The position numbers and the translations under genes were made by a program. A stretch of 64,000 nucleotides of DNA from Candidatus Sulfomarinibacteraceae bacterium (lineage in GTDB: Bacteria > Acidobacteriota > Thermoanaerobaculia > Thermoanaerobaculales > Sulfomarinibacteraceae). The notes under the pieces were generated by a model. That model saw only the letters and a list, made by a program, of their open reading frames with translations, did not search any database and had not been told where the DNA came from. Below, piece by piece: positions 4,259 through 63,490 of this stretch. The stretch lies in assembly GCA_963796455.1 (NCBI GenBank), contig CAWCLO010000006.1:156087-220086 (forward strand), read 5' to 3'. The stretch's first letter is position 1; the number at the start of each line of letters is the position of its first letter.

Positions 4259-4299
4259 GCCCCGCGTCCTACTCGGACGCGGGGCTCTTTGTTGTTTTT
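4259..4299 (+). terminator. Rho-independent terminator of the giant surface-protein gene
   Basis: 11-bp stem GCCCCGCGTCC / GGACGCGGGGC with loop TACTC, followed by T-rich tail TCTTTGTTGTTTTT, 29 nt after the stop. Confidence 0.8.
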
Positions 4300-4436: not shown

Positions 4437-5813
4437 ATGGAGATGAAAATGAACTTTGACGAACTTGCAGCCGGCCTCCGAGGTGAACTGGTCACACCAA
4501 ACTCCCCTGACTATCACGATGTCCGGGCTGTTTACAACGCGATGATCGACAAGAAACCTGCGGCCATGGCCCGTTGTGTAGATGCGGCCGATGTCCAGAC
4601 CTGCGTCAACTTTGCACGAGAAAACGGCATTCCATTGGCCATCCGCAGCGGCGGCCACAACGCGGGAGGCCTCGGCTCTGTGGATGACGGCCTGGTGATC
4701 GATCTATCACCCATGCGCGGCATCAGGGTCGATGCAAAAAACAAAACGGTACGTGTCCAGGGCGGCTGCCGGTGGGGGGATGTGGATCACGCCGCCCACC
4801 CCTACGGCCTTGCAGTTCCGGCCGGGATCATCTCGACCACCGGTTGCGGAGGGCTCACCCTCGGCGGCGGAGTCGGCCACCTGACGAGAAATTTCGGTCT
4901 GACCATCGACAACCTCCTCGAGGCCGATGTCGTCCTCGCCGATGGCTCGATGGTGGTTGCCAGCGCCGACGAGAACCCGGATCTCTTCTGGGCCTTGTGT
5001 GGCGGCGGCGGCAACTTCGGAGTCGTGACATCTTTCTTATTCCGCGGCAACCCGGTTAACACCATCTTCGGTGGACCGACACTGTGGAGCCTCGACCGCA
5101 CCGAGGAGATCATGAAGTGGTACCGCGAATTCATCCTCTCCGCACCCGAGGAACTCACCGGATTCTTCGCATTTCTCACCGTTCCGCCCGGACCACCCTT
5201 TCCGGAACACCTCCACCTCAAAAAGATGTGCGGGGTCGTCTGGTGCTATTCAGGTGACATGGCCAAAGCGGAGGAGCTCTTTGCGCCAGTTCGTGCACTC
5301 GAACCGGATCTCTACGGCGTCCAGGAGATGCCCTTCCCGATGCTCAACTCGGCCTTCGACCCGATCTACCCGCCCGGCCACCAGTGGTATTGGCGGGCCG
5401 ACTTTTTCACCGAGATCACCGACGAAGCAATCATCGAGCACGCCAAATGGGGAGCCGACATGCCGACCATGCAGAGCTCGATGCACCTCTACCCGATCGA
5501 CGGTGCTGCCCATCGGGTCGGGGCCGAGGACACGGCCTGGAGCTATCGCGAGGCCAACTGGGCGGGGGTCATCGTCGGCGTCGATCCCGATCCGGCCAAC
5601 AAAGACCTGATCCGCGACTGGGCGGTCGGATACTGGGATGCGATCCACCCTTCCTCCTCCGGCGGCGCCTACATCAATTTCATGATGGAAGAGGGCCAGG
5701 AGAGAGTGCGGGCGAGCTACCGGGGCAACTACGAACGCCTGGCCCAGGTCAAAGCAAAGTACGACCCGAACAACTTTTTCAAGGTCAACCAGAACATTCA
5801 CCCGAAGGGTTAG
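4437..5813 (+). CDS. FAD-linked oxidase, berberine-bridge-enzyme-like (FAD_binding_4 + BBE C-terminal)
   Basis: N-terminal FAD-binding pattern (AIRSGGHNAGG, GGLTLGGGVGHL). C-terminal YINFMMEE...YDPNNFFKVNQNI typical of BBE-type oxidases. ATGs at 4437/4443/4449; GGAG lies 7 nt before 4449. Confidence 0.9.
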   Translation: MEMKMNFDELAAGLRGELVTPNSPDYHDVRAVYNAMIDKKPAAMARCVDAADVQTCVNFARENGIPLAIRSGGHNAGGLGSVDDGLVIDLSPMRGIRVDAKNKTVRVQGGCRWGDVDHAAHPYGLAVPAGIISTTGCGGLTLGGGVGHLTRNFGLTIDNLLEADVVLADGSMVVASADENPDLFWALCGGGGNFGVVTSFLFRGNPVNTIFGGPTLWSLDRTEEIMKWYREFILSAPEELTGFFAFLTVPPGPPFPEHLHLKKMCGVVWCYSGDMAKAEELFAPVRALEPDLYGVQEMPFPMLNSAFDPIYPPGHQWYWRADFFTEITDEAIIEHAKWGADMPTMQSSMHLYPIDGAAHRVGAEDTAWSYREANWAGVIVGVDPDPANKDLIRDWAVGYWDAIHPSSSGGAYINFMMEEGQERVRASYRGNYERLAQVKAKYDPNNFFKVNQNIHPKG

Positions 5814-5900
5814 GGACCTTCGCCTGCAGCGTCCAAAGAGGCACGGAGAATCAAGCAGTCCCGTGAAAGTGCCCACCTGACAACATGAGGTTTACAGGTT

Positions 5901-6055
5901 GGTTGTTGGCATATCCGGTTCGCGGTTTCCCCGTGTCCGCGTCCGCGTCCGTGCCCGAATTGCAGCGGCAGCGACAGTGTCCAGGGGCAGCGCCAGGGAT
6001 CAGGGGCGGGGAACAGCGATCAGTATTCAGCAATCAGCGGCAGCGATCAGATCCG
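5901..6055 (+). repeat. CAGNNNN heptamer-array element, copy A1 (reads CAG units on plus strand)
   Basis: Starts 88 nt after the FAD-oxidase stop. ~45-nt head GGTTGTTGGCATATCCGGTTCGCGGTTTCCCCGTGTCCGCGTCCG, then degenerate 7-nt units (CAGGGAT, CAGCGAT, CAGTATT, CAGCAAT, CAGCGAT, CAGATCC). Homologous to 54351..54522 on the minus strand. Confidence 0.8.
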
Positions 6056-6120
6056 TGCGAGACCTGGCGATTGCTCCACCAGATTTCTTGAACTGAGCGT
6101 TTTGTGCCATCCGTACTGGG

Positions 6121-6270
6121 GAGGCTGTCGCTGAAGACGGCCGCTGATGACTGAACGCTGACGCTGAGTACTGTTCGCTGACGCTGTCTGCTGTTCGCCG
6201 TCGCTGTCCCTGATCGTTATCCGAGACGTTGTCTTGGACACGAGTGATCCTGCATCCTGCATCCTGCATC
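6121..6270 (-). repeat. CAGNNNN heptamer-array element, copy A2 (reads CAG units on minus strand)
   Basis: On the minus strand it starts 54 nt after the thioredoxin-like stop with (GATGCAG)x3 (plus-strand CCTGCAT x3 at 6249-6269). Units that follow: CAGCGAA, CAGTACT, CAGCGT, CAGCGTT, CAGTCAT. Motif content is the reverse complement of copy A1. Confidence 0.7.
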
Positions 6271-6323
6271 GAGTATCGGGCGAGTGGGTGGCTCTCCGGC
6301 GTTTCGACGCCTCGGAGTGGGCT

Positions 6324-6899
6324 CTACGCCGCTTCCGTCTCGTCGGTTTCCGGCTCGACCTCCAGCACCTCGATCGCCTCGACCGCCGTCGCAATCACCG
6401 CAACCATCTCGTCAAATTCGGACCGTTCGAATCCCTGCGACTGGAAGAGGATCGTGCCGTTCGGCCCGATGACCACGTTGCGCGGGATGAAGCGCGAGGC
6501 GTACTGGCTGTAGGCGATCATCTCGGGGTCGCCGGCGACCGGAAAACTGTAATCGTGCTGATCCATGAAGGGCTGCAGGACCGTCTTATCTTCTTCGCGC
6601 CCGATTACGACCAGGGCGAAACGATCTTTGTCGAATCGCTGCCAGATTTCTGCGTCGAGGTGGGGCAGTTCTTCGCGACACGGCGGACACCAGGTGGCAA
6701 AGAAATTGACCAGAACCACCTTGCCCCTGTGGGCTTCGAGATTGAAGGTCTCACCCTCCAGGGTCACCAGTTCGAAGGACGGCGCTGTTTGGCCGATGAC
6801 CGTGATGGTGGTTTCTTCGGGTGTGAGCTCGGGTTCGCCCGCACAGGCAGATATTAGAAGAGCGACGAAGAGAATAGTGGCATTCTTGAGAATTTGCAT
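6324..6899 (-). CDS. TlpA/ResA-like thiol-disulfide oxidoreductase lipoprotein (thioredoxin fold)
   Basis: Lipobox LLISAC, active site WCPPC, redoxin-like context FFATWCPPCREELPHL. ATG at 6899 is preceded by GGAGGGG; the ORF track extends to a GTG at 6911. Confidence 0.9.
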   Translation of the reverse strand: MQILKNATILFVALLISACAGEPELTPEETTITVIGQTAPSFELVTLEGETFNLEAHRGKVVLVNFFATWCPPCREELPHLDAEIWQRFDKDRFALVVIGREEDKTVLQPFMDQHDYSFPVAGDPEMIAYSQYASRFIPRNVVIGPNGTILFQSQGFERSEFDEMVAVIATAVEAIEVLEVEPETDETEAA

Positions 6900-7234
6900 T
6901 GGCCCCTCCACAGAGGCGGAGACCGAAGCCCCGGCCCGCTGCGAAGTTTAGCACCCACGCTATCGCTACCTTCGACCCAAGGGTTTTTGATCGGCTTGAC
7001 GCAACCGCGATCGGGACTCATATTGAATGTCAGCTCAACCAATAACTCGGCGCAAGATTGCGGGTCCTCTCCGGGATCTTCGTGACTCCAGGAACCGGGG
7101 TAACGTGCCCGCGTTTTTCTGCCCAAACAGAAAGGAGAGCCTTGGGATCTATGACCACTGATCGCCGTCGACCTCGTCGAAAATCCCTTTCATCCACATC
7201 ACTTGATCGTAATGCCCAAGAAAGAGAGGAAGGA

Positions 7235-8959: not shown

Positions 8960-8985
8960 GGGCGCCTTCGGGCGCCCCTTTTTTT
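8960..8985 (+). terminator. Rho-independent terminator
   Basis: GGGCGCC-TTCG-GGCGCCC hairpin followed by C and T7, 16 nt after the stop at 8944. Confidence 0.8.
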
Positions 8986-10824: not shown

Positions 10825-11666
10825 AAAACCGCACCATCGCACTCGTCTTTTCGGTTTTCCTGGTTGGCGCCACGGCCGCTGAGGATCCCAAGCACACCGC
10901 GGCTGCAATCGACAGTTACAAAACCGCCTGGTCGGGTGCGATCGACATGGTGACCCCTGGCGGCTATCTCTATGAAGAACTGCGGCGCTGCGCCGGCTGC
11001 CACGAGACCGCCAAGGACGGCCAGGGCCGGTCCACACACCGCAACGCCATCGGCATCACCGGCGAGTCCGAAGCACCGGAAATAACCGGCAAGGGGTGGC
11101 TGAGCGGGGGTCACGGACGGAGCCAGGATCCCGAGATCGTCTCGAATACCCACTGCGCCTGGTGCCACGCACCGAGCCAACCCGGGGTCACCGCCGACAT
11201 CGCGGCCGCCAAACCGATTGATGGCGGCCGGGTCGGGGTCAGCTGCATCGCCTGTCACGCCTCAGAGGCCGTCAATGACGAGTTCGGCTCCTACCAGGCA
11301 AACTTCCGACCGGGAGGCGACCGGGACAGCTTGGTGGATTTTGTTCCACGAAGCTCTGAGAGCGGGGTCGAGACCAACGGCCAGTGTCTCTTCTGTCATC
11401 TTCGGCAGCACGAGTTCACGGTAGAACACCACGGCGCCATGGTGGCCGGCGGCGACCTGCTGTGCATCGACTGCCACATGGCGGTCTACAACATCACCGA
11501 TTCGGGACGCGCGGAGCGATACCACAACATGAGGGTGGCGGAAAACCGTGACGCCGCAACCTGTCGGCCGTGCCACCACTTCAAACCCGATGAAATGGCC
11601 GAGAAATGCAAACAGCTGGTGCCCGATCAGGCTTCGACCGTGCACGCCGTACCGGCCTTCGAGTAA
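10821..11666 (+). CDS. Periplasmic hexahaem c-type cytochrome
   Basis: Signal peptide MKNRTIALVFSVFLVGATAAED. Six CxxCH motifs (CAGCH, CAWCH, CIACH, CLFCH, CIDCH, CRPCH). GTG start overlaps the ACAD stop (GTGA). Confidence 0.8.
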   Translation: MKNRTIALVFSVFLVGATAAEDPKHTAAAIDSYKTAWSGAIDMVTPGGYLYEELRRCAGCHETAKDGQGRSTHRNAIGITGESEAPEITGKGWLSGGHGRSQDPEIVSNTHCAWCHAPSQPGVTADIAAAKPIDGGRVGVSCIACHASEAVNDEFGSYQANFRPGGDRDSLVDFVPRSSESGVETNGQCLFCHLRQHEFTVEHHGAMVAGGDLLCIDCHMAVYNITDSGRAERYHNMRVAENRDAATCRPCHHFKPDEMAEKCKQLVPDQASTVHAVPAFE

Positions 11667-11819
11667 GCACCGCGGGCGCAGCCGCCGGGAATGCAGAAAA
11701 ACCCATCGCAGTTTGTATCTGTCAGAGCCCAGCAATCCGAGACCTGAAGACGCGCAAAGCCAAAGAACCTCTCCTTCTCGCGCGCTCGAAGTGTCTCTCG
11801 ACATGCCCTTGGAGACCAC

Positions 11820-12437
11820 ATGAAGCTCTACTATCACCCGATTTCCGACAACTGCCGCCGGGTTTTGGCGACCATCTATGAACTCGATCGCGAAGACGTG
11901 GAACTCGAGGTCGTCGACCTCTTCAAAGGAGAGCACCAGACGCCCGAATTTCTGGCCCTCAATCCGAACGGCAAGGTTCCGGTTCTCGTCGACGGCGAGG
12001 TCTCGATGTGGGAGTCGATTGCCATCATGCAATACCTGTCTGGGGAAAGCAACCTTTGGCCTCAGAGCAAGTTACGCTACGACATCATCCGCTGGCAGGT
12101 CTGGTCGGTCGCCCATTTCGGATCAGCCATCGACAAGATCGTCTTCGAACGCTTGATCAAAAAGACCATGGGAATCGGTATGCCCAACGAGGGAACGGTC
12201 GAAGCGGCGGTCGCCGATTTCAAACGCTATGCCGCGGTTCTCAACGGCCACCTCGAAGGGCGCGATTGGTTGGTTGGCGACAACATCACCCTGGCTGATC
12301 TTTCGGTGGCAGCCAAGTTGACATACGCTCCCGCAGTGGCCGTTTCGATCGGCCCCTTCGACAACATCGATCGCTGGTACGGTGCGATCGAAGCGCGGGA
12401 TTCGTGGCAGAAATCTGCGCCGCCCGACATGAGCTGA
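11820..12437 (+). CDS. Glutathione S-transferase family protein
   Basis: N-terminal thioredoxin-like GST pattern (MKLYYHPIS.NCRRV...NPNGKVPVLVDGE..WESIAIMQYL) and a C-terminal alpha domain. Confidence 0.9.
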   Translation: MKLYYHPISDNCRRVLATIYELDREDVELEVVDLFKGEHQTPEFLALNPNGKVPVLVDGEVSMWESIAIMQYLSGESNLWPQSKLRYDIIRWQVWSVAHFGSAIDKIVFERLIKKTMGIGMPNEGTVEAAVADFKRYAAVLNGHLEGRDWLVGDNITLADLSVAAKLTYAPAVAVSIGPFDNIDRWYGAIEARDSWQKSAPPDMS

Positions 12438-17601: not shown

Positions 17602-17632
17602 AAAAAAGGGGTGGATCCGTTTGGATCCACCC
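17602..17632 (-). terminator. Rho-independent terminator (minus strand), possibly bidirectional
   Basis: GGGTGGATCC-GTTT-GGATCCACCC hairpin. On the minus strand it is followed by TTTTTTG. Sits between convergent stops at 17600 and 17680. Confidence 0.65.
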
Positions 17633-34152: not shown

Positions 34153-35336
34153 CTATCTCGTGCTCCACGTCCCGCTGCACGAATAAGCCTCGCCCCAGGC
34201 GGTGGCCACGTTCTTGATTTCACCGCTGCCGGTGAGAGCGTTGCCGGAAGCCGATGGGTTGACGTGCCCCGTCATCACGATGGTGTCCATCGATGTGACC
34301 GAGATCTCGCCGGCGGCATTGACCGTTCCCTCCGCGATTCGGGTGAAATTATCGAAGTACAAAAGACCTTCGGCCTTGGGCACTTTGACGGTCAGGTCGA
34401 AATTCCCGGTCGTCGTCACTGCCCCGATCGGCTGGCATTTCCACTGGTAATCACCCTTCAAGGTGTACTCCCCGCTGCCCAAATGACCACTGCCGGTCGA
34501 TGGTGAAGCCACGGTGCTCGGCGGTTGGTTCGGAACCACAGGCGGTGGTGGTGGCGGGGCGGTCGTCGGTGGTGACGGCTGCGATTGCGTTTGGCCCGCA
34601 GGTGGAGACACCGGCGCGTCGGTCCCACCGGGCTGTGGATCGCCGATCGTGGCCAACGCCGACTCCAGCTGTCGTCGCAGCTCCGGATCCTTGATCTGAC
34701 TCATATCGATCTTGCCCACCATCGATCCCGATTCCTCCGGTTGCGGCGTCGGCACGGGAGTGGGAACGGCCCGGATGGTCGGCGTTGGTGTTGGTGGTGG
34801 CGGCGGCGGCTGATTCCTCGGCGGGTTTCCCGGAGGGTTCCCAGGAGGGTTCCCAGGAGGGTCCTTCCGGGAGGCAACACGAGAGGAGCCGGCGGCATGG
34901 CGCAGCGCAGTTGCCCCCTGTCGTTGGGCAAACACTGCATGCCGGCGCCACAGATGGCGGTTCCACAGCATTCCGCGGGCGGCACCGCACAGCGCGAGCC
35001 ACCGGCGCAGTTCATGCAGACCATGCCAGCACCGCAGATCGCCGAACCACAGCACACTGCCGGACGAACTGCACAGCGTGAACCACCGGCGCAGTTCATA
35101 CAGATCATGTTGTCGCCGCAAACGGCGTCGCCACAACACACCGCTGGCGGCACAGCGCACTCGGGGCCACGCGCACAAACGATGCATTGCATGTTCGGGC
35201 CGCAATCGTCGGAGCCCGGTCGACAGTCGTCTGCCCACAAGACCGTTGGTTGGATCAACGCGTAACCTGAAATGATCAACACACAGACCGCAAACCCGAG
35301 AGAGTACCGAGGCCTCGAGAACGTTTGTTCATTCAT
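34153..35336 (-). pseudogene. Secreted protein: Cys-rich 31-aa repeats x3, Pro-rich linker, C-terminal beta-rich domain; one frame break
   Basis: ATG 35336 (GGGGAGAG RBS) with signal/TM segment. Repeats have the form CCGxAxCGxxMxCxNCAGGSRCAVxPA, in ORF 34701..35444. The linker KDPPGNPPGNPPGNPPRNQPPPPPPTPTPT and the rest are in ORF 34153..35238. Shift near 34870-34900. Confidence 0.6.
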
Positions 35337-38079: not shown

Positions 38080-41000
38080 TCAGTCTTTTCGCGCGAAGAT
38101 CCAGCTGAAACGGAACTCGTAATCGGTTCCCGTTTTCGGATCGTCGAGGGAACGTACGATATCCGCCGGGGAGTTGATAAAGCTTTCCCTCGGCGAGAAG
38201 AGTTGAACCTCCGAAAGCAACCCCGCCTCTCTTGATTTCAAGGTCAGAGAACGAAACCCTGACGGTTTCAAAGGGATGTCCGCCAGCATCGGGTCTGAAA
38301 CAGGCATGAGCGCAACGCTCTTCACCGTCAGGTAGTACTCCCCGTCAAAGCGGCGGATGCTGAACTTCGCCGGCAAACCAGGAGAACGAATCAACTTACC
38401 AAGGGCCGGCGCAACCTCCTCGACACCCTTGATCAATTCGCCGCCCAACTCCTCCATGAATTTCTGGTCCTCTTGCGCCTCTCGTTTTTGGCTGCGCTCG
38501 TGATCGGTGGCCGTGGGCAAGCGACGGATTCTGGCCCTCTCCTGATCCACCTGCTCGTTATAGATGCTCCTGACCTGGACCATGCTTTTGGTGAGGTAGA
38601 GGCCGTGCGTCTCGCGGACGAAACCCGACCAGTCGCCGACAAAGGGATCGCGATTCGGGACCGGTGCCGGGTGACTTTCATTGCCGAACTCGTCGATAAC
38701 GCTCACCGTGAAGACGTAGTCGTCGGTCGAAGGCATGCCGGGGTCGTAGTCGTAAGACTCCAGTCTCGTTCGATCGACCCGGCTGAACGCAGAGTTCGGC
38801 TGCCCCGCAAGCTTCCGAAAGACCTGATACTCGCGCCAGACCTCTGGATAATTTTTGAGGGCGACCTCGTCCCACTCGACCTGCCAGGTATTTGCGGGCG
38901 TTTGCCAGTACCGAACGTTTTCCGGGGGGACCAAAAGCCACCGCTGGACATTTACTCCGCGAACCGACTCCTCCAGTGAACGGTTGACCGCCACTACCGT
39001 GACGCAGTCGGGATGAGATTCTTGACCGACCTGGTCGATCACCAGGATCGGCAGTTTGTCCGGCGCCAGGGGGATCTTTTCCATCGGATCCGGGCGGCCG
39101 GGATAGGGTGCGAATCCGATGCATTCATCCTTCCCCATATACAGCGCCAGGTCCGGCGAGACAGGCTCGTTGCTTTCGAATCGAACCACCAGCTTCGCTT
39201 TTTGGGTTTCGGGAAACTCCCCCACGCTCATGTAGACAGCTTCAGCGGAAAGATGCGGCAGGTGGCGGCGCCCGTGTTTTTCTTCAACCCCGAACTCGTG
39301 TGACGCCCACGGATTGACAAAATGCCAGGAGGTACCGGGTAACCCGATTGAGACGTTGATGAACTTCTTATCGGTCAGAGAAAGCGCCTCCATCAGAACC
39401 GGCTGAAAGGCGCCAGTGTGGTATCCCGGGACCATACCTGGAGATCGCCCATGCCCCTTCCAGAACTCGTTGTGGAAAAAATCCAGTGCGAATTCCGTAA
39501 ACAGATCGGCCAGACCCCGATTGCCACCCTTCAAAGTTTTTCTACCCGCCGCATCGAGATCCTCGAGCTCGACGAAATGACCCAACCAGCTTTCAGCCGC
39601 AGCCACGAGAAACTTCAACCCGGCTCGCGTGCCGAAGCCCTGGTCCAACCACCGCGGAAAAACGAAGTACGGGTCGATGACCAATCCACCCGCGTCCATC
39701 GGCCACTGAGGGATGACGCCACCTTTCACTACCGACGTCGGCAAAAGCCGTTTCAGTGGCCGTCCCTGATCCTCCCAGTAATGGAAGGCGACGTAGGCGG
39801 CCATGAGATCGATGAACCATCCCGAATAACGGGCCGTGAGCGCGCTGAAATGCTCGTCGAGCGCTACGTTTGTAAGTTCGCGCGCCGCGGCGTAGCGGAT
39901 GATCTCGTCGGCTGGGACCCGCGCCCTCGCGGCGAGACTAATCAGCTCCGACGAGACGAACAACGGTCCGCCGAGTTGCGTGGCTCCAAACCAATGTCCG
40001 ATGCCCTGAACGAATACGTCGTGCCGGATGATTTTGACCACCGGCACATCGAGACCCATCTTGTTGAAACCCGTCAGACAGTCCTCCAGCAGTTCTCCGA
40101 GATACCGCACGTAGAGTGGATGGCCGTCCGGGGTGTTTTTGCCACCAAACGTAACGCCGGCCTCACGAAAAGCCTTGTCGTCCGGGACGGCATGTTTCCC
40201 GGTCGTCACATAGTGGATCTTGAAGTTTCCTCTCGGTGTTTCGTACTCGAGTCCAGAGGTAACCCACCACGCCGCTGAGTAGACCTGTGCGCGACCCGTG
40301 CTGGTCCCCGCGACCGCTCCCACCGCCGCAAGACCGGCCACACCCACCGGCCACGCGACACTTGTACCAGCACCAGCAGCAGCAGCCAGGTTGAGCGTGC
40401 TGCCCGCAATCTGCGGGACCAGGGCAGGGGTTGGGATAGCCGCAATGGGGGCGGCGACGCTTGCATGCGGGAGTTCGGCGGTGATGGTTTTTTTCTCGCG
40501 ATCGATCCGCGACGGGAACGCCACCCAGCGGCCGTTTTCCCAGCATGCGATAGCCGGCAGATCCCCATCGCTCAGCCCTTCATAGGGCAAGGTCAAGGTC
40601 ACCGGTCGTTGAAAGGTGTAGTGCTCCCGGTCACCGATGCGGAGGTCCACCGCCGGTCCGGCGAATGGTGCCGCCATCTCGTCCGAGACCCTGAGCAACG
40701 GGGTCATCGATATCTCTGTGGCGATACCGATGGCGCCGGGTGGGACCTTGAGAGATGCAGTTTCTGAAAATGCCAACTCGGCGCCGCTCGCGGGCTCGTA
40801 GTGTGTCGCGACCCGGCCGAAATCGAAGTCGACCCGTTCACCCGGAGGTTGGGGCTCGGACCGCTCACCGGTCGTCGACTGCTCCTCGGCCCACCGCGCC
40901 CACGCTTCCGGATTGTCCACCAGCGTGATGTGCGGTTCGTACCGCGGCCCCCGCCAGAACGCCATCCGGTCGAACCATTTCGGATTGATCCACAGGACCA

Positions 41001-41094
41001 GTACGAGCTCCACCAGAAGTACGACTGTCAGGCAGAATGATCGAGAAGCAACCGAGGCAGCCGAGGTTCGATTGCTTGCCGTGGGGGCGTTCAT
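38080..41094 (-). CDS. Large (1004 aa) N-terminally membrane-anchored hypothetical protein
   Basis: ATG 41094 behind AAGGGGGTG. TM helix FCLTVVLLVELVLVLWI. No HExxH or other catalytic motif found. FN3-like stretch (VRYWQTPANTWQVEWDE...YVFTVSVIDEFGNES). Charged helix ERARIRRLPTATDHERSQKREAQEDQKFMEE. Intact 3-kb frame. Confidence 0.7.
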   Translation of the reverse strand: MNAPTASNRTSAASVASRSFCLTVVLLVELVLVLWINPKWFDRMAFWRGPRYEPHITLVDNPEAWARWAEEQSTTGERSEPQPPGERVDFDFGRVATHYEPASGAELAFSETASLKVPPGAIGIATEISMTPLLRVSDEMAAPFAGPAVDLRIGDREHYTFQRPVTLTLPYEGLSDGDLPAIACWENGRWVAFPSRIDREKKTITAELPHASVAAPIAAIPTPALVPQIAGSTLNLAAAAGAGTSVAWPVGVAGLAAVGAVAGTSTGRAQVYSAAWWVTSGLEYETPRGNFKIHYVTTGKHAVPDDKAFREAGVTFGGKNTPDGHPLYVRYLGELLEDCLTGFNKMGLDVPVVKIIRHDVFVQGIGHWFGATQLGGPLFVSSELISLAARARVPADEIIRYAAARELTNVALDEHFSALTARYSGWFIDLMAAYVAFHYWEDQGRPLKRLLPTSVVKGGVIPQWPMDAGGLVIDPYFVFPRWLDQGFGTRAGLKFLVAAAESWLGHFVELEDLDAAGRKTLKGGNRGLADLFTEFALDFFHNEFWKGHGRSPGMVPGYHTGAFQPVLMEALSLTDKKFINVSIGLPGTSWHFVNPWASHEFGVEEKHGRRHLPHLSAEAVYMSVGEFPETQKAKLVVRFESNEPVSPDLALYMGKDECIGFAPYPGRPDPMEKIPLAPDKLPILVIDQVGQESHPDCVTVVAVNRSLEESVRGVNVQRWLLVPPENVRYWQTPANTWQVEWDEVALKNYPEVWREYQVFRKLAGQPNSAFSRVDRTRLESYDYDPGMPSTDDYVFTVSVIDEFGNESHPAPVPNRDPFVGDWSGFVRETHGLYLTKSMVQVRSIYNEQVDQERARIRRLPTATDHERSQKREAQEDQKFMEELGGELIKGVEEVAPALGKLIRSPGLPAKFSIRRFDGEYYLTVKSVALMPVSDPMLADIPLKPSGFRSLTLKSREAGLLSEVQLFSPRESFINSPADIVRSLDDPKTGTDYEFRFSWIFARKD

Positions 41095-41171
41095 GACAGC
41101 ACCCCCTTCATGGTGAGCACAATGAGCACGAAAAGAGCAAAGTCGATGGCCAACCAGGTCTGGAGGCCGAT

Positions 41172-41796
41172 TCAGGGCCACCCTCCGCGACCGACCCGGC
41201 CGCCGGCGTCAGCAATCCGCCGAGCCCCCATGTGCGCCTCGACAAAACCGACAACCCAGGGGATGACGAGCGGGCTGAAGACCAACAGCAGGAATCCAAG
41301 GAAAGGCTTTCCGTTGTATGACTGACCGGCCCCCGGAACCAGGATCCCCGAGAATAACGCCACCACCGGGCTGTGGCGGCGCGCTCCGGGTGCCAGTTCG
41401 ACGACCGGTGGAGGAGCCTCTTTTCTTGGCGTCGGCGCGGCTTGTTTCTTCGGAGGCGGGGTCATCTTTGGTTTCGGCTTGGGGGGCTGTTTTGACTCGA
41501 CACGGGCATCCGACGAAGAGGAACCGCAGGAACTGCAAAACCGGGCGTCCGAATCGAGCTTGGTTCCGCACGATCCACAGACCAGAGTCTGGATCGGCAA
41601 CGGCCCGGCCTCGAGAATCCTCTCGGCTCCGCATTTGGAACAGAATCTCTTGCCCTTTGGAATCTCAGCGCCGCAATCGCTGCAGGTGGGCCTCGGTGAC
41701 CTTGGGGCAGGCCTTTCCGAGAGCCCCCCCACACGTGGTGCAGAAACGCGTTTCCAGTCGGTTTCGGTGCCCACACTCGCCGCAGGTAGTACTCAT
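41172..41796 (-). pseudogene. Triple zinc-ribbon protein with C-terminal TM domain; frame broken at a 7-nt homopolymer
   Basis: ATG 41796 behind AAAGGAGG. Zinc ribbons CGECG..FCTTCG / CSDCG..FCSKCG / CGSCG..FCSSCG. Removing one base from C7 (41724-41730, G7 on the coding strand) gives one continuous 207-aa ORF ending at 41172. Confidence 0.7.
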
Positions 41797-46556: not shown

Positions 46557-46590
46557 GGAGGCGCGCGATGATCGCGCGCCTCCTTTTTTT
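46557..46590 (+). terminator. Rho-independent terminator of the nuclease gene
   Basis: 13-bp perfect stem GGAGGCGCGCGAT / ATCGCGCGCCTCC followed by T7. Confidence 0.9.
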
Positions 46591-52948: not shown

Positions 52949-54036
52949 GACGCCGATCCGGCCGCAGGCGGAATTTCCTCGACCTCGATTTCGAGGCCCG
53001 GCCGCATCTGCAGAATGCCGGACGTGATCACCAAATCGCCCACCGCGAGACCGCTGGTGATCTGGACCGCAGTCTCCGAACGAATACCGGTTTCGACCGA
53101 GCGCGGCTGGGCGGCACCCTTTTCATAGACAAACACCTTTTTCCCGCCGAGTTCCGGGATAACGGCGATCGATGGCACCGTCAACGCGTCCGGAATCGAA
53201 CGCAGGACGAGGTCCACATTGGCAAAGGCCCCGGGGACCAGTATGCCGTCGGGATTCGGGCATCGGGCGCGCATCCGCAGCGAGCGGGTCTGAGCATCGA
53301 CACTCGGCTCGATGGCATAGATCGTTCCTGGAAAGCTCTGTTCCGATCCCTCGACGGCGAAGGAAATCTCTTCACCCACCTGCAACAACGCAGAGTATTT
53401 CTCCGGTACGGAGAAATCCAGTTTGACCGGGTCCAGGTCGTTCAGCGAAGCAATCGTCGTCTGCGATGAGAGATAGCTCCCTGGGCTCACCCACCTCAGG
53501 CCGATGATCCCGCTGAAGGGTGCGCGGATCTCTGTTTTCAGGAGTTGCGCCTCGATCTGCTGCAGCTCGGCGCGAAGGACGTTGAGCTCGCCGAGCGCCA
53601 CGTCGTAGTTTTCGCTCGAGATGACCCCGTCGGCAAGCAGCTGTTTCTGGCGGGCCTCGGCGCGCTCGGAGAGTTCGACCCGAAAGAGGGCCCGCTGCCG
53701 ATCGGCCAGGAGCTCGGAATCGTCGATTTTCAAAAGCAGCGCTCCGGCACCGACCGGACTGCCTTCCTTGAAGTGGATCGAGGAGATCTTGCCCGAGATC
53801 TCGCTCACGATATCCACCTCCTCGTTGGCGCGAACGGTTCCGGTGGTGGCAAGCCGCTCGGTGAGGTGGATCGGGCTGACCTGATGCACACTGACCCGAA
53901 GTGGCTCCTGCAGAGGCCCGCCGGTCTCGGGAGCAGCAGTTCGGCGCATCTCCATCAACTTGGGTATCGCCAACAGGGCGAGAACAACCAGCACGACAGC
54001 AATGCCAACGCGCCTTCGTGGGATCACTCTCATCAT
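52945..54036 (-). CDS. RND efflux periplasmic adaptor (membrane fusion protein)
   Basis: TM anchor, hairpin/lipoyl/beta-barrel pattern (VSEISGKISSIHFKEGSPV.., IRAPFSGIIG). ATGA overlap with the permease gene. Confidence 0.9.
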   Translation of the reverse strand: MMRVIPRRRVGIAVVLVVLALLAIPKLMEMRRTAAPETGGPLQEPLRVSVHQVSPIHLTERLATTGTVRANEEVDIVSEISGKISSIHFKEGSPVGAGALLLKIDDSELLADRQRALFRVELSERAEARQKQLLADGVISSENYDVALGELNVLRAELQQIEAQLLKTEIRAPFSGIIGLRWVSPGSYLSSQTTIASLNDLDPVKLDFSVPEKYSALLQVGEEISFAVEGSEQSFPGTIYAIEPSVDAQTRSLRMRARCPNPDGILVPGAFANVDLVLRSIPDALTVPSIAVIPELGGKKVFVYEKGAAQPRSVETGIRSETAVQITSGLAVGDLVITSGILQMRPGLEIEVEEIPPAAGSAS

Positions 54037-54243
54037 TTCTCCGATCTTCGCGTCATGCCTCCGAACTCGAAGCGGCTCGAGGGGAGGTCTGTTTTATAGC
54101 ACGGGGCAGGAATCCTCATGACAAGCTCGATCGCGATTCCAGCTGCTTCGGGGGCTTTCGAGTGGGCAATGAGGTTGGTGTTCGTGGCGGCGTTGGACAT
54201 GGTCACCTCTGGGTCGTTCATGCCCATACCCACAAGCCGGTGT

Positions 54244-54297
54244 GGCGGCCGATGTCAAGGGTGCCCTGCACCCTGCCTGTCTTTGACATCGGCCGCC
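54244..54297. other. Strong nested hairpin (15-bp perfect stem) upstream of the RND operon
   Basis: GGCGGCCGATGTCAA (54244-54258) pairs with TTGACATCGGCCGCC (54283-54297). The loop contains an inner GGGTG/CACCC stem. No U-run on either strand. Confidence 0.7.
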
Positions 54298-54350
54298 CAC
54301 CGGCTACCCCCTTCTGTTGAACGACCCGGTGGTGGCCTCGCCGTTACGGC

Positions 54351-54522
54351 ACCTGATTGCTGCCACTGAATTCTGTCGCTGATTGCTGATCGCTGTTCCC
54401 TGTCGCTGCTATCTGGCGCTGTCGCTGTTCGCTGGCGCCTGTTCGCTGCCGCTGCCGCTGGACACTGTCGCTGCAATTCGGACGCGGACACGGGCAAATG
54501 CGAACCGAATATTCCAACATCC
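54351..54522 (-). repeat. CAGNNNN heptamer-array element, copy B
   Basis: On the minus strand it starts 14 nt after the EcsC-like stop with head GGATGTTGGAATATTCGGTTCGCATTTGCCCGTGTCCGCGTCCG (about 85% identical by eye to the 5901 head). Shared GAATTGCAGCGACAGTGTCCAG follows, then units CAGCGAA, CAGGCGC, CAGCGAA, CAGATAG, CAGCGAT, CAGCAAT. Confidence 0.8.
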
Positions 54523-54535
54523 GCCTCGTGATCGA

Positions 54536-55342
54536 TCAGGACTCGACAACTGTCCTTCTGGCCAACAACCCGTTGTATCGCTTTCTCACTTCATCCGGGC
54601 CATAGATCCGCTCGAGACGTCGAACCGTGAAGTGTCCTCGCGCCATGTCCTGGAAGTGGTCCATAAAGAGAACATTGATCCCCGCACCCCCGAGGGCGCC
54701 GACAAGAGGCACACCCTGGACCATGATTTTTTCACCGACGACGGTGTTGAACCGGGCCGCGATCTGAGCCAGCAGACGAACGATGACCGGTGCGCCGTCT
54801 TCGATGACCGATCGCTGCGCGACGTATTTCGCGGCCTCGCTGACCGCCCGCGCAAGGGCCGCCCGGACAGCGAAATAACCCGATTCGGTGGCATCGTCTT
54901 CGTTCGACGAACCACCCATGGCAAAGACCTCGAGACACGCCAGGCGCGCCGCTGGGTCAGTGAGATCTTCACCCTCGCTGCGGGCGACATCGGCGATGGA
55001 CCGCAGGATGATCGTCGTGGTGATCGGCAACTCGACGGCAAGCGCCGCCAAACCGAAGGCGCCGCCAACTCCACCGACCAGGCCTGCCGCCGCCGTGTGG
55101 CTTTTCAACCACGGTCGCCGCCGCTTTCCGCTACCCAGGGTCAACGCCGCCGTGTTGACCGCCGCGGTCAGGGATTTGTGGACGGTCTTGGTGATCTTGT
55201 CGCTGGTGTTGGTCGGCAACTTGTCCAGGACATACTCGATCGGCGTCCCGACAAGATCAGAGGCCCTGGCGATAAAGCCCGGGTTTTCCAACAACTCGAT
55301 CGCCGATTCCAGATCTTCGAGGTCTTCGTATCGCCAGTCCAT
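54536..55342 (-). CDS. EcsC-family protein
   Basis: N-terminal DLEDLESAIELLENPGFIARASDLVGTPIE and a Gly-rich amphipathic core resemble EcsC (PF12787-type) proteins. By-eye assignment. Confidence 0.7.
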   Translation of the reverse strand: MDWRYEDLEDLESAIELLENPGFIARASDLVGTPIEYVLDKLPTNTSDKITKTVHKSLTAAVNTAALTLGSGKRRRPWLKSHTAAAGLVGGVGGAFGLAALAVELPITTTIILRSIADVARSEGEDLTDPAARLACLEVFAMGGSSNEDDATESGYFAVRAALARAVSEAAKYVAQRSVIEDGAPVIVRLLAQIAARFNTVVGEKIMVQGVPLVGALGGAGINVLFMDHFQDMARGHFTVRRLERIYGPDEVRKRYNGLLARRTVVES

Positions 55343-55403: not shown

Positions 55404-55434
55404 TTGACAGACACGCCATCACGACTCATATTAT
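55404..55434 (+). promoter_or_regulatory. Candidate sigma70-like promoter of the PadR operon
   Basis: Perfect TTGACA (55404-55409), 17-nt spacer, CATATT (55427-55432). Alternatively TATTAT at 55429-55434 with a 19-nt spacer. Confidence 0.5.
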
Positions 55435-55442
55435 GCAGAGTG

Positions 55443-55468
55443 TCGATATATCGAGAATCGATATATCG
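55443..55468. promoter_or_regulatory. Tandem palindromic operator candidate (2 x TCGATATATCGA)
   Basis: Perfect 12-bp palindrome TCGATATATCGA at 55443-55454, repeated 15 bp later (TCGATATATCG, 55458-55468). Sits immediately downstream of the -10 and 25 nt before the PadR ATG. Confidence 0.55.
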
Positions 55469-63435: not shown

Positions 63436-63457
63436 GCTGATTTGAGCAATAACCCAA

Positions 63458-63490
63458 GGGGAGAGCCTTTGGCTCTCCCCTTTTTTTTCT
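63458..63490 (+). terminator. Rho-independent terminator of the S8 protease gene
   Basis: GGGGAGAGCC-TTT-GGCTCTCCCC hairpin followed by T8. Confidence 0.9.

Follow-up and report, generated by a model that had tools for sequence, protein, structure and literature searches.

The window analyzed here is a 64,000-nucleotide (nt) stretch from a Candidatus Sulfomarinibacteraceae bacterium (contig CAWCLO010000006.1, positions 156,087 to 220,086), and our subject is a 510-bp spacer within it (5814-6323) that is bounded by two convergent gene ends and contains two facing arrays of short CAG-containing units. An earlier note on this DNA had placed the spacer between the stop codons of an FAD-oxidase gene (5813) and a thioredoxin-like gene (6324), and both gene ends were confirmed by the list of open reading frames (ORFs) and by Pfam. 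The spacer was found to consist of two facing copies of a dispersed non-coding element and not of one designed structure. Copy A lies on the plus strand and copy B on the minus strand, and a third copy, C, is located 48 kb from this pair. The features concerned are listed below; names beginning with L denote metagenome loci discussed further on.

4437-5813, plus strand: left flanking gene, encoding an FAD-linked oxidase (ORF list; Pfam FAD_binding_4, E=3e-32, and BBE, E=2e-15)
5823-5962, plus strand: head of element A, with the outer terminus at about 5823-5844 (CCTGCAGCGTCCAAAGAGGCAC), a type-1 head at 5864-5962, and (CCGCGT)x3.5 at 5931-5951 (matches to C, alignment, Tandem Repeats Finder (TRF))
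5963-6050, plus strand: array of element A, 13 CAG triplets in CAGCGN or CAGCGAT-like units (pattern match in register at 5989-6030)
6052-6098, minus strand: tail of element B ("tail-2", GGGTTCAAGAGCCGCCAGGTCATCGCAC), abutting the end of the A array; like the L013-left and L009-right tails, a short similarity read by eye and without statistics
6116-6215, minus strand: array of element B, CAG on the minus strand (CTG on the plus strand) at a spacing of 6 or 7 nt, with two 13-nt gaps (pattern match at 6144-6185)
6216-6296, minus strand: head of element B (type 2), with the outer terminus at 6222-6248 (GGATCACTCGTGTCCAAGACAACGTC), preceded by (GATGCAG)x3.4 (TRF; similarity)
6294-6317, minus strand: small GC-rich stem-loop directly after the stop codon of the AhpC-like gene, with no U tract (read from the sequence; the terminator scan did not report it)
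6324-6911, minus strand: right flanking gene, encoding an AhpC-TSA/Redoxin (thioredoxin-fold) protein (ORF list, Pfam)
54298-54337, minus strand: tail of element C ("tail-1", GGCCACCACCGGGTCGTTCAACAGAAGGGGGTAGCCGGTG), also present behind the L009-left and L013-right arrays
54345-54475, minus strand: array of element C, 19 consecutive CAG triplets at a spacing of 6 or 7 nt (TRF; pattern match at 54379-54420; L009 orthologue)
54476-54531, minus strand: head of element C, a type-1 head truncated at its 5' end and beginning directly behind the stop codon (54536-54538) of an EcsC-family gene (head alignment)

CAG triplets occur in the window at a background of 1.6 per 100 nt, and a density of 10-15 per 100 nt is attained by arrays A, B, and C alone. 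At spacings of 6 or 7 nt, CAG triplets formed chains of up to 7+6 units in A, 8 in B, and 19 in C, while 200 first-order Markov simulations of the window gave chains with a mean of 2.8 and a maximum of 5. Because the observed chains far exceed the simulated maximum, the arrays are real and not a product of chance, and the existence of the facing pair claimed in the earlier note is borne out by both density and chain length. The count of about 15 units given there for the plus strand has to be lowered to 13, with successive spacings of 6,6,7,6,6,7,13,7,7,7,6,7. The description of the units as heptamers applies to half of them: across the family, 39 units are heptamers (CAGCGAT, CAGCGAA, CAGTGTC, and others), but 37 are hexamers (CAGCGN), and the order of the two is not fixed. 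CAG is invariant in these 76 units, and the spacers of 3-4 nt are variable. Similarly, the (GATGCAG)x3 with which the minus-strand array was said to open is real and perfect ((GATGCAG)x3.4 at 6247-6270, 100% matches by TRF), but a non-repeat stretch of ~40 nt separates it from the CAG array.

All three arrays lie within spacers that are gene-free in the ORF list of the window. A coding repeat was considered and is ruled out by the mixed 6/7-nt periods and by indels that are not multiples of three. A CRISPR array had been discounted from the start, correctly so, as the units are 6-7 nt long and contiguous, whereas CRISPR repeats measure 24-48 nt and alternate with unique spacers of similar length. 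No Rfam family matched at gathering score in the entire window, and at E<=10 only chance-level matches to snoRNAs and miRNAs were obtained, in agreement with the view that no described non-coding RNA family is involved, as far as Rfam is concerned. There is no tRNA or tmRNA in the window, so the element has no such origin.

A fixed-length pattern of 42 nt with 23 specified bases (AGCGNCAGN4CAGN10CAGCGNTCAGN3TCAG) matched A, B, and C, and had 0 matches in 100 shuffles. The in-register match in all three indicates that the arrays are homologous and not three independent slippage products. Together with the homologues at other loci, it replaces the picture of independent local heptamer runs by one of copies of a single dispersed element. 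What is newly seen is that the array is packaged in a dispersed head-array-tail module. The element measures roughly 250-350 nt and consists of a unique head, which opens with an outer terminus common to the copies (approximately TCACTGCTGTCCAAAACAGATCGTC) and may include a type-1 insert (CCACCTGACAAC...TTGGMATATCCGGTTCGC...(CCGCGT)n...AATTGCAGCG), a CAG array with 3-4 variable bases between the triplets, and one of two short tails. The heads of A and C share the exact 16-mers CCCGTGTCCGCGTCCG and CAGCGACAGTGTCCAG as well as longer exact matches, and the A head is 78-79% identical to L009 and L013 over 168-181 nt. The B head is 84% identical to the L009-right element over 77 nt, and its outer part, as read from the sequences, resembles the L013-right head. 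For the B array, the best match is with the distal half of L013-left, itself a long array (87% over 65 nt), which suggests that recombination may have taken place within arrays. Heads and tails combine differently among the copies. No fold signal was detected in the A head (z=-0.03), and the heads share no consensus structure. A structured RNA in the head was rejected (RNAalifold gave -6.8 kcal/mol with a positive, that is unfavourable, covariation term, and the single-sequence z was ~0), and a sigma-54 or sigma-70 promoter there found no support (the hexamer spacing misfits by manual reading, and the scan found none).

Metagenome contigs of the Joint Genome Institute (JGI) were scanned with the 42-nt pattern, and nine loci were found. 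A strict head pattern had 0 matches in the metagenomes, and a head-pattern scan of genome contigs gave nothing but a chance match to coding sequence in a Gastranaerophilales MAG. In viral contigs, the array and head-junction patterns had 0 matches, and an 18-nt head pattern hit only apparent phage coding regions, which we judged to be chance. A distant blastn search of the plasmid collection with both loci gave no match. L009 is the orthologue of the locus of C (80% identity over 371 nt, rising to ~96% in the downstream hairpin described below). L013 is another facing pair, and L028, from a strain with a KdsC protein 98% identical to that of L013, carries the same right-hand element. The same heads and tails occur in L009 and in L013/L028 beside different genes, and the further copies lie at unrelated loci in related uncultured bacteria that are probably Acidobacteriota-like. 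Other CAGCGN(N) arrays, with unrelated flanks, were found on contigs of 58-67% GC. The contigs of L028 (1-60) and L014 (9151-9391) begin or end inside CAG/CTG arrays, an indication that such arrays break metagenome assemblies.

The genomic context of the copies varies. A, which begins ~10 nt past the oxidase stop codon, as well as B, L010, and L016 are located behind convergent genes on the sense strand, L011 lies directly after a stop codon, and C is on the sense strand between co-oriented genes. The L013 pair and L008 are found between divergent genes with their heads pointing outward, L014 and L009-right are antisense behind a gene, and at L012 queD is preceded by an array in CUG sense and followed by one in CAG sense. 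The suggestion that each array belongs to the 3' region of its own gene thus holds for A and B, but members of the family are also found at L013 and L008, where the genes diverge, and at L012, where they lie in either orientation among co-oriented genes. The gene enclosed by the opposite arrays of L012 (1491-2285; ~170-220 nt each, with CAGCGY(T) units) is an ordinary queD, encoding 6-carboxytetrahydropterin synthase, and a single transcript of this locus would bear complementary arrays flanking it.

Loci of relatives were also compared. The element is absent at the orthologous HlyD loci of relatives with 78-80% protein identity, and in a relative with 84% protein identity the KdsC locus has other repeats in its place. 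At both loci the flanks of the relatives are rearranged or repeat-filled, and too little of them is collinear to define insertion boundaries. L003 and L007, which are syntenic for the oxidase gene, have the same spacer with the same mirrored layout, but the units of which it is built differ completely, namely (GGGAGAAA)n (ATTTCGG)n ... (TCAAAAT)n (CTCCCCTG)n, and certain of the arrays are perfect (L003 11387-11543, L007 11370-11630). The presence of different mirrored arrays in the same spacer of relatives indicates that spacers in this clade are repeatedly colonised by short-unit arrays with a fast turnover. The G-rich strands of these arrays, GGGAGAAA and CAGGGGAG, fit a G-quadruplex motif and are on opposite strands. 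As a general explanation the G-quadruplex idea was rejected, since B and C do not fit it, although the L003/L007 arrays and a single stretch of A (GGGG..GGG..GGGG.GGGG) do. Several other features were noted at these loci. A 131-aa gene, possibly spurious, is called in L003 at 11606-12001, between the arrays and the AhpC-like gene. The spacer of L024 (14200-14700) contains two copies of a ~110-nt element that includes GCGACAGAATTCTGTCGC, and L029 (9400-9960) contains a ~120-nt unit present ~2.5 times and, immediately ahead of the KdsC start, a short run of (TCAAAAY) heptamers.

Length differences between relatives involve whole units. C and its L009 orthologue differ by array gaps of 6 and 7 nt, the L028 array is ~26 nt longer than that of L013 despite their 98% identical KdsC proteins, the copy number of (CCGCGT)n differs between heads, and perfect (CAGCGAT)x4 runs are present in L008 and L013. 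Whole-unit gaps, a variable (CCGCGT)n, and perfect runs are the expected marks of slipped-strand mispairing, and the length changes would fit such a process. For an estimate of conservation within the array, ungapped blocks from three homologous pairs were used, with the locus-finding stretch excluded. CAG positions were identical in 60 of 62 cases (97%) as compared with 54 of 72 (75%) for the remaining positions (Fisher p=4e-4). Within aligned blocks, homologues agree in whether a unit is 6 or 7 nt long. Neighboring units keep different spacers, so that simple homogenisation does not explain the conservation of CAG. That only the CAG triplets are conserved within the array is the second new observation, and it suggests that the CAG (or CTG) triplets may be read by something. 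Cooperative binding to duplex DNA fits poorly with the irregular 6/7 step, which is more compatible with a binder of a flexible single strand.

The facing orientation makes the spacer a long imperfect palindrome, as the earlier note had described. Its arms are 72-86% complementary, and in the minimum free energy (MFE) fold 76 inter-arm pairs span 5932-6242; the z-score of the spacer fold is only about -2.6. Nevertheless, the palindrome looks like the automatic result of two inward-facing copies and appears to be incidental rather than a co-adapted hairpin. Of all array pairs, A and B show the lowest similarity, and replacing B by the reverse complement of the unlinked copy C changes the fold from -149 to -205 kcal/mol. 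Moreover, solo copies exist, and the parts are unstructured: single arrays fold no better than their shuffles, with z-scores from -0.95 to +1.7 (A +1.7, B 0.0).

A scan of 5700-6450 for sites of the intrinsic terminator type (GC-rich hairpin plus U tract) returned 0 sites, consistent with the claim that the spacer is not a simple terminator. The stem-loop at 6294-6317 may be the AhpC-like gene's own 3' hairpin. Strong canonical intrinsic terminators were detected directly behind genes at 4259-4285, 8960-8977, 17609-17632, 46557-46583, and 63456-63482, with GC-rich stems of 10-12 bp followed by a T run, and these textbook cases, at least five in number, show that standard terminators are in use in this organism. 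No canonical terminator follows the oxidase, AhpC-like, or EcsC gene. With no canonical terminator in the spacer, both convergent transcripts probably enter the elements.

These results are best accommodated by a reading in which the spacer is occupied by two inward-facing copies of a non-coding dispersed repeat with a history of mobility and slippage, in which the palindrome is a by-product, and in which the array probably has a sequence-specific reader. As a whole, we give this reading about an even chance of being correct; the mechanism of spread and any function are what we infer, and they can be pictured as follows. Copies would have colonised intergenic spacers either as non-autonomous mobile DNA or through recombination between arrays, with spacers behind convergent genes presumably tolerating such DNA best. 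Once in place, an array would gain and lose whole units through slipped-strand mispairing. Two copies placed tail to tail would automatically yield a CAG-rich left half and a CTG-rich right half, and thereby the palindrome. A sequence-specific partner would probably recognize the array, and the most plausible candidate is a protein with affinity for single-stranded RNA or DNA that can accommodate spacers of 3-4 nt. Both mRNAs probably run into the elements, and read-through transcripts could then fold or pair.

Several observations weigh against this reading. The copies are old (A and C are ~70% identical) and show no sign of recent spread. Neither a target-site duplication nor a clean empty site was found at the loci compared (HlyD, KdsC), and the ~40 window proteins scanned include no transposase and no REP-associated tyrosine transposase (RAYT, a Y1 transposase). 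The conservation test covers ~130 aligned positions, the alignment of repeats favors the matching of CAGs, and concerted evolution could have contributed to the result. The search pattern itself demands CAGs, so the sample of additional loci is biased. Finally, because most of the sampled arrays (A, B, L010, L011, L016) are sense and just 3' of a gene, a role at the RNA level in the 3'-untranslated region (3'-UTR) is possible.

The likeliest alternative, although we still regard it as unlikely, is that the arrays are multivalent platforms on single-stranded RNA or DNA for an oligomeric protein that reads one CAG per subunit, and thus constitute a 3'-UTR regulatory site or a sponge RNA. The high conservation of CAG relative to the spacers (97% vs 75%), the retention of 6-versus-7 unit lengths in aligned blocks, and the irregular 6/7 spacing, which suits a flexible single strand better than cooperative duplex binding, are all in its favor, as is the finding that the arrays are unstructured on their own, A being even less structured than its shuffles (z=+1.7). 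However, the conservation test is small and open to alignment bias, the orientation relative to transcription is mixed (both senses at L012, antisense at L014 and L009-right), a candidate binding protein was not found in the window, and no promoter or terminator delimits a small RNA. The known proteins that come to mind here are TRAP, which recognizes (G/U)AG triplets with spacers of 2-3 nt, and HutP, which recognizes UAG with spacers of 4 nt; their targets are the 5' leaders of specific Bacillus operons and contain 3-11 triplets. The arrays resemble these targets in form only, being repeated NAG triplets with short, non-conserved spacers in an otherwise unstructured sequence. They differ from them in having CAG as the triplet, 13 or more units, dispersed loci, and both orientations, and in that A and B lie behind gene ends. 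No TrpBP (TRAP) or HutP domain was found among the window proteins. By analogy, the CAG-N3-4 arrays might nonetheless be high-valency platforms for an oligomeric single-stranded nucleic acid-binding protein, with one CAG per subunit as in TRAP/HutP but on a larger scale, and the elements might form a dispersed post-transcriptional or single-stranded DNA (ssDNA) regulatory or sponge system common to several uncultured high-GC lineages with CAGCGN(N) arrays. In this extended form, the idea seems to us improbable.

Also improbable, in our estimation, is that the spacer represents a selected bidirectional terminator or 3'-end stabiliser whose CAG and CUG arms pair into a ~300-nt stem in read-through RNA, in the manner of repetitive extragenic palindromic (REP) sequences and bacterial interspersed mosaic elements (BIMEs). 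The long stem with its 76 inter-arm pairs, the absence of a canonical terminator where five other genes have strong ones, and the position of several family members on the sense strand just past a stop codon all speak for such a device. Yet the fold yields a z-score of only about -2.6, a U tract is missing, and the arms show no co-adaptation, A and B being the least similar pair and the pairing of A with the unlinked C being predicted to be much better (-205 vs -149 kcal/mol). In addition, the solo copies C, L010, L011, and L016 have no partner arm, lone arrays being unstructured, and pairs also occur between divergent genes (L013) and around queD (L012). REP, BIME, and REP doublet forming hairpin (REPIN) elements typically lie between gene ends, and a REP is an imperfect palindrome of 20-40 nt. 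Compared with REP, a single copy of the present element is unstructured and not palindromic, the arms are not a matched doublet, and no RAYT is encoded among the ~40 window proteins. The likeness lies in the dispersed extragenic location and in inverted doublets able to form a long hairpin, both of which are found in REP/BIME/REPIN (Bertels and Rainey 2011, PMC3116915).

A slimmer chance is given to a foldback element of the miniature inverted-repeat transposable element (MITE) type, in which the pair would be the mobile unit, the outer termini its terminal inverted repeats, the CAG arrays subterminal transposase-binding repeats, and the solo copies decayed halves. The earlier dismissal of a MITE nature was premature, because all heads share the outer terminus and in a pair it forms terminal inverted repeats. 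At L013 these are 25-nt inverted repeats that are 84% complementary and 499 nt apart, while the termini of the window pair have only an 18-nt match at 72%. Pairs or flanking copies in the window, L013, L009, and L012 also speak for a MITE, as do the varied combinations of heads and tails and the occurrence of copies in unrelated intergenic loci but not at the relatives' orthologous loci. The halves of the window pair, however, are not mutual closest relatives and their centres are arranged unlike those of L013, which indicates that pairs were not copied as a single unit. No target-site duplication or precise empty site was identified, no transposase is nearby, the L012 arrays flank an ordinary queD gene, and we know of no bacterial precedent for subterminal arrays of 6-7 nt units.

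That the arrays are double-stranded DNA operators or centromere-like sites, on which a ribbon-helix-helix, Fur-like, or ParB-like protein polymerises, is very improbable: although their orientation-independent occurrence in all intergenic contexts fits a role at the DNA level, and the AATCAGC/GATCAGC units may loosely resemble the WATCACW heptads of the omega repressor, known contiguous-repeat operators need a strict period where here 6/7-bp steps alternate irregularly, no known operator comes near a length of 13-40 units, the arrays here lie between gene ends with no promoter, and no such regulator or partition gene is adjacent.

For the reading as facing copies of a dispersed repeat, useful precedents exist among short-unit arrays, and the architecture is therefore not as unrecognised as it had first seemed. 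Among them, the heptamer array of Xanthomonas comes closest. In Xanthomonas and Nostoc, arrays of GGGAATC and GGGGA(C/T)T heptamers are intergenic and genome-wide (Rehm et al. 2015, PMC4692102). Each Xanthomonas genome has 70-75 convergent pairs on opposite strands, the arrays are transcribed and have no known function, and the unit number differs between related species while the single or inverted-pair type is kept (PMC4692102). The features in common are thus intergenic tandem arrays of short units, a convergent pair near stop codons, a layout that was already described there (PMC4692102), and unit numbers that vary between relatives. The differences are that the Xanthomonas units are G-rich, quadruplex-capable, and preferentially four in number, whereas those described here are CAGCGN(N), number 13-19 in the window and more at some loci, have mixed 6/7-nt periods, and are degenerate outside CAG. 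A dispersed conserved head and tail, as found here, is not reported for Xanthomonas (PMC4692102). The G-rich arrays (GGGAGAAA)n and (CAGGGGAG)n of L003 and L007 come nearer to those of Xanthomonas.

Arrays of TAACTGA occur in Beggiatoaceae, cyanobacteria, and Bacteroidetes, mostly in intergenic regions and with a sporadic phylogenetic distribution (MacGregor 2015, PMC4679880). Indels in 7-nt steps between strains were attributed to polymerase slippage, and the Beggiatoaceae arrays are mainly located just upstream of start codons (PMC4679880). A general excess of heptamer repeats was noted by Mrazek 2007, as cited in MacGregor 2015 (PMC4679880). On its opposite strand TAACTGA reads TCAGTTA, which is also a CAG-plus-4 unit. 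The short tandemly repeated repetitive (STRR) sequences of cyanobacteria, to which the earlier note had likened the arrays, belong to the right general class of intergenic hexa/heptamer tandem arrays, but membership in STRR itself does not hold because the units are heterogeneous, 6 or 7 nt long, and the host is not cyanobacterial. The units compared were those of STRR1-3. As to the host, both its gene content and its nearest homologues with a name suggest Acidobacteriota or Gemmatimonadota rather than cyanobacteria. STRR and TAACTGA are near-perfect single heptamers of lower-GC genomes, whereas the present arrays are heterogeneous 6/7-mers at 61% GC with a head and tail attached. They do show above-chance iteration, a non-coding location, and unit-number variation, the marks of intergenic hexa/heptamer simple-sequence arrays (long simple sequence repeats, LSSR). 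Paired sites of tandem octa- and heptamers on opposite strands are known from Geobacter metallireducens (PMC2700814). With respect to modularity, the BOX element of Streptococcus pneumoniae, boxA-(boxB)n-boxC, is modular, MITE-like, and enriched downstream of genes, at sites that tolerate insertion (Croucher et al. 2011, PMC3049150). Like the present element it is dispersed and intergenic, with a 5' module, a variable tandem array that sets its size, and a 3' module. However, boxB is 45 nt long and present in few copies, as opposed to 13 or more units of 6-7 nt, and there is no sequence similarity. BOX also folds tightly through the pairing of boxA with boxC, whereas a single element here has no fold signal.

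The neighborhood of C has features of its own. Between element C and an efflux operon lies a hairpin on the minus strand (54211-54327, core stem 54235-54305) with a folding energy of -64.6 kcal/mol and z=-5.4. Its identity to L009 is ~96%, as against no more than 75-80% for the element next to it. The 3' arm of the hairpin leads into a strong Shine-Dalgarno sequence (GAGGTGA), and more distant relatives have no such hairpin at their HlyD loci. The hairpin may be a leader or regulatory RNA of the resistance-nodulation-division (RND) efflux genes. It is followed on the same strand by a small ORF of 55 codons (54036-54200, MSNAATNTNLIAHSKAPEAAGIAIELVMRIPAP...) whose stop codon overlaps the start of the HlyD-like gene (...AAATGATGAGA...), an overlap that suggests possible translational coupling of the two. 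The N-terminal 33 residues of this ORF are conserved in L009 with several synonymous changes, and its C-terminal part differs. On the other side of C, (TCGATATA)x3.4 is found at 55443-55468 between divergent genes for an EcsC-family protein and a PadR-family regulator, and it is adjoined by a promoter-like site at 55404-55432 (TTGACA-17-CATATT). Elsewhere in the window, a 1033-aa ORF with no Pfam match (38080-41181, minus strand) includes a short CAG/ACCAGC coding repeat (40366-40389), which is the only CAG-dense spot besides the arrays. At 34823-35109, the 12-nt unit GGGTTCCCAGGA, present 3.3 times, is followed by an 84-nt unit present twice (78% match), in a region with candidate ORFs that overlap.

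Of the non-coding features of large, GC-rich bacterial genomes that still lack an explanation, short hexa- and heptamer arrays are some of the commonest, and they have no known function in Xanthomonas or in cyanobacteria. In practical terms, such arrays break assemblies, and gene callers may also put spurious ORFs on them. If the element described here were merely selfish or neutral DNA, its description would amount to routine repeat annotation for an uncultured lineage. Beyond that, the case suggests that an array can travel inside a larger head-array-tail module and that a conspicuous palindrome of facing arrays need not be a selected feature, and the conservation of CAG alone within the array points to a sequence-specific reader.

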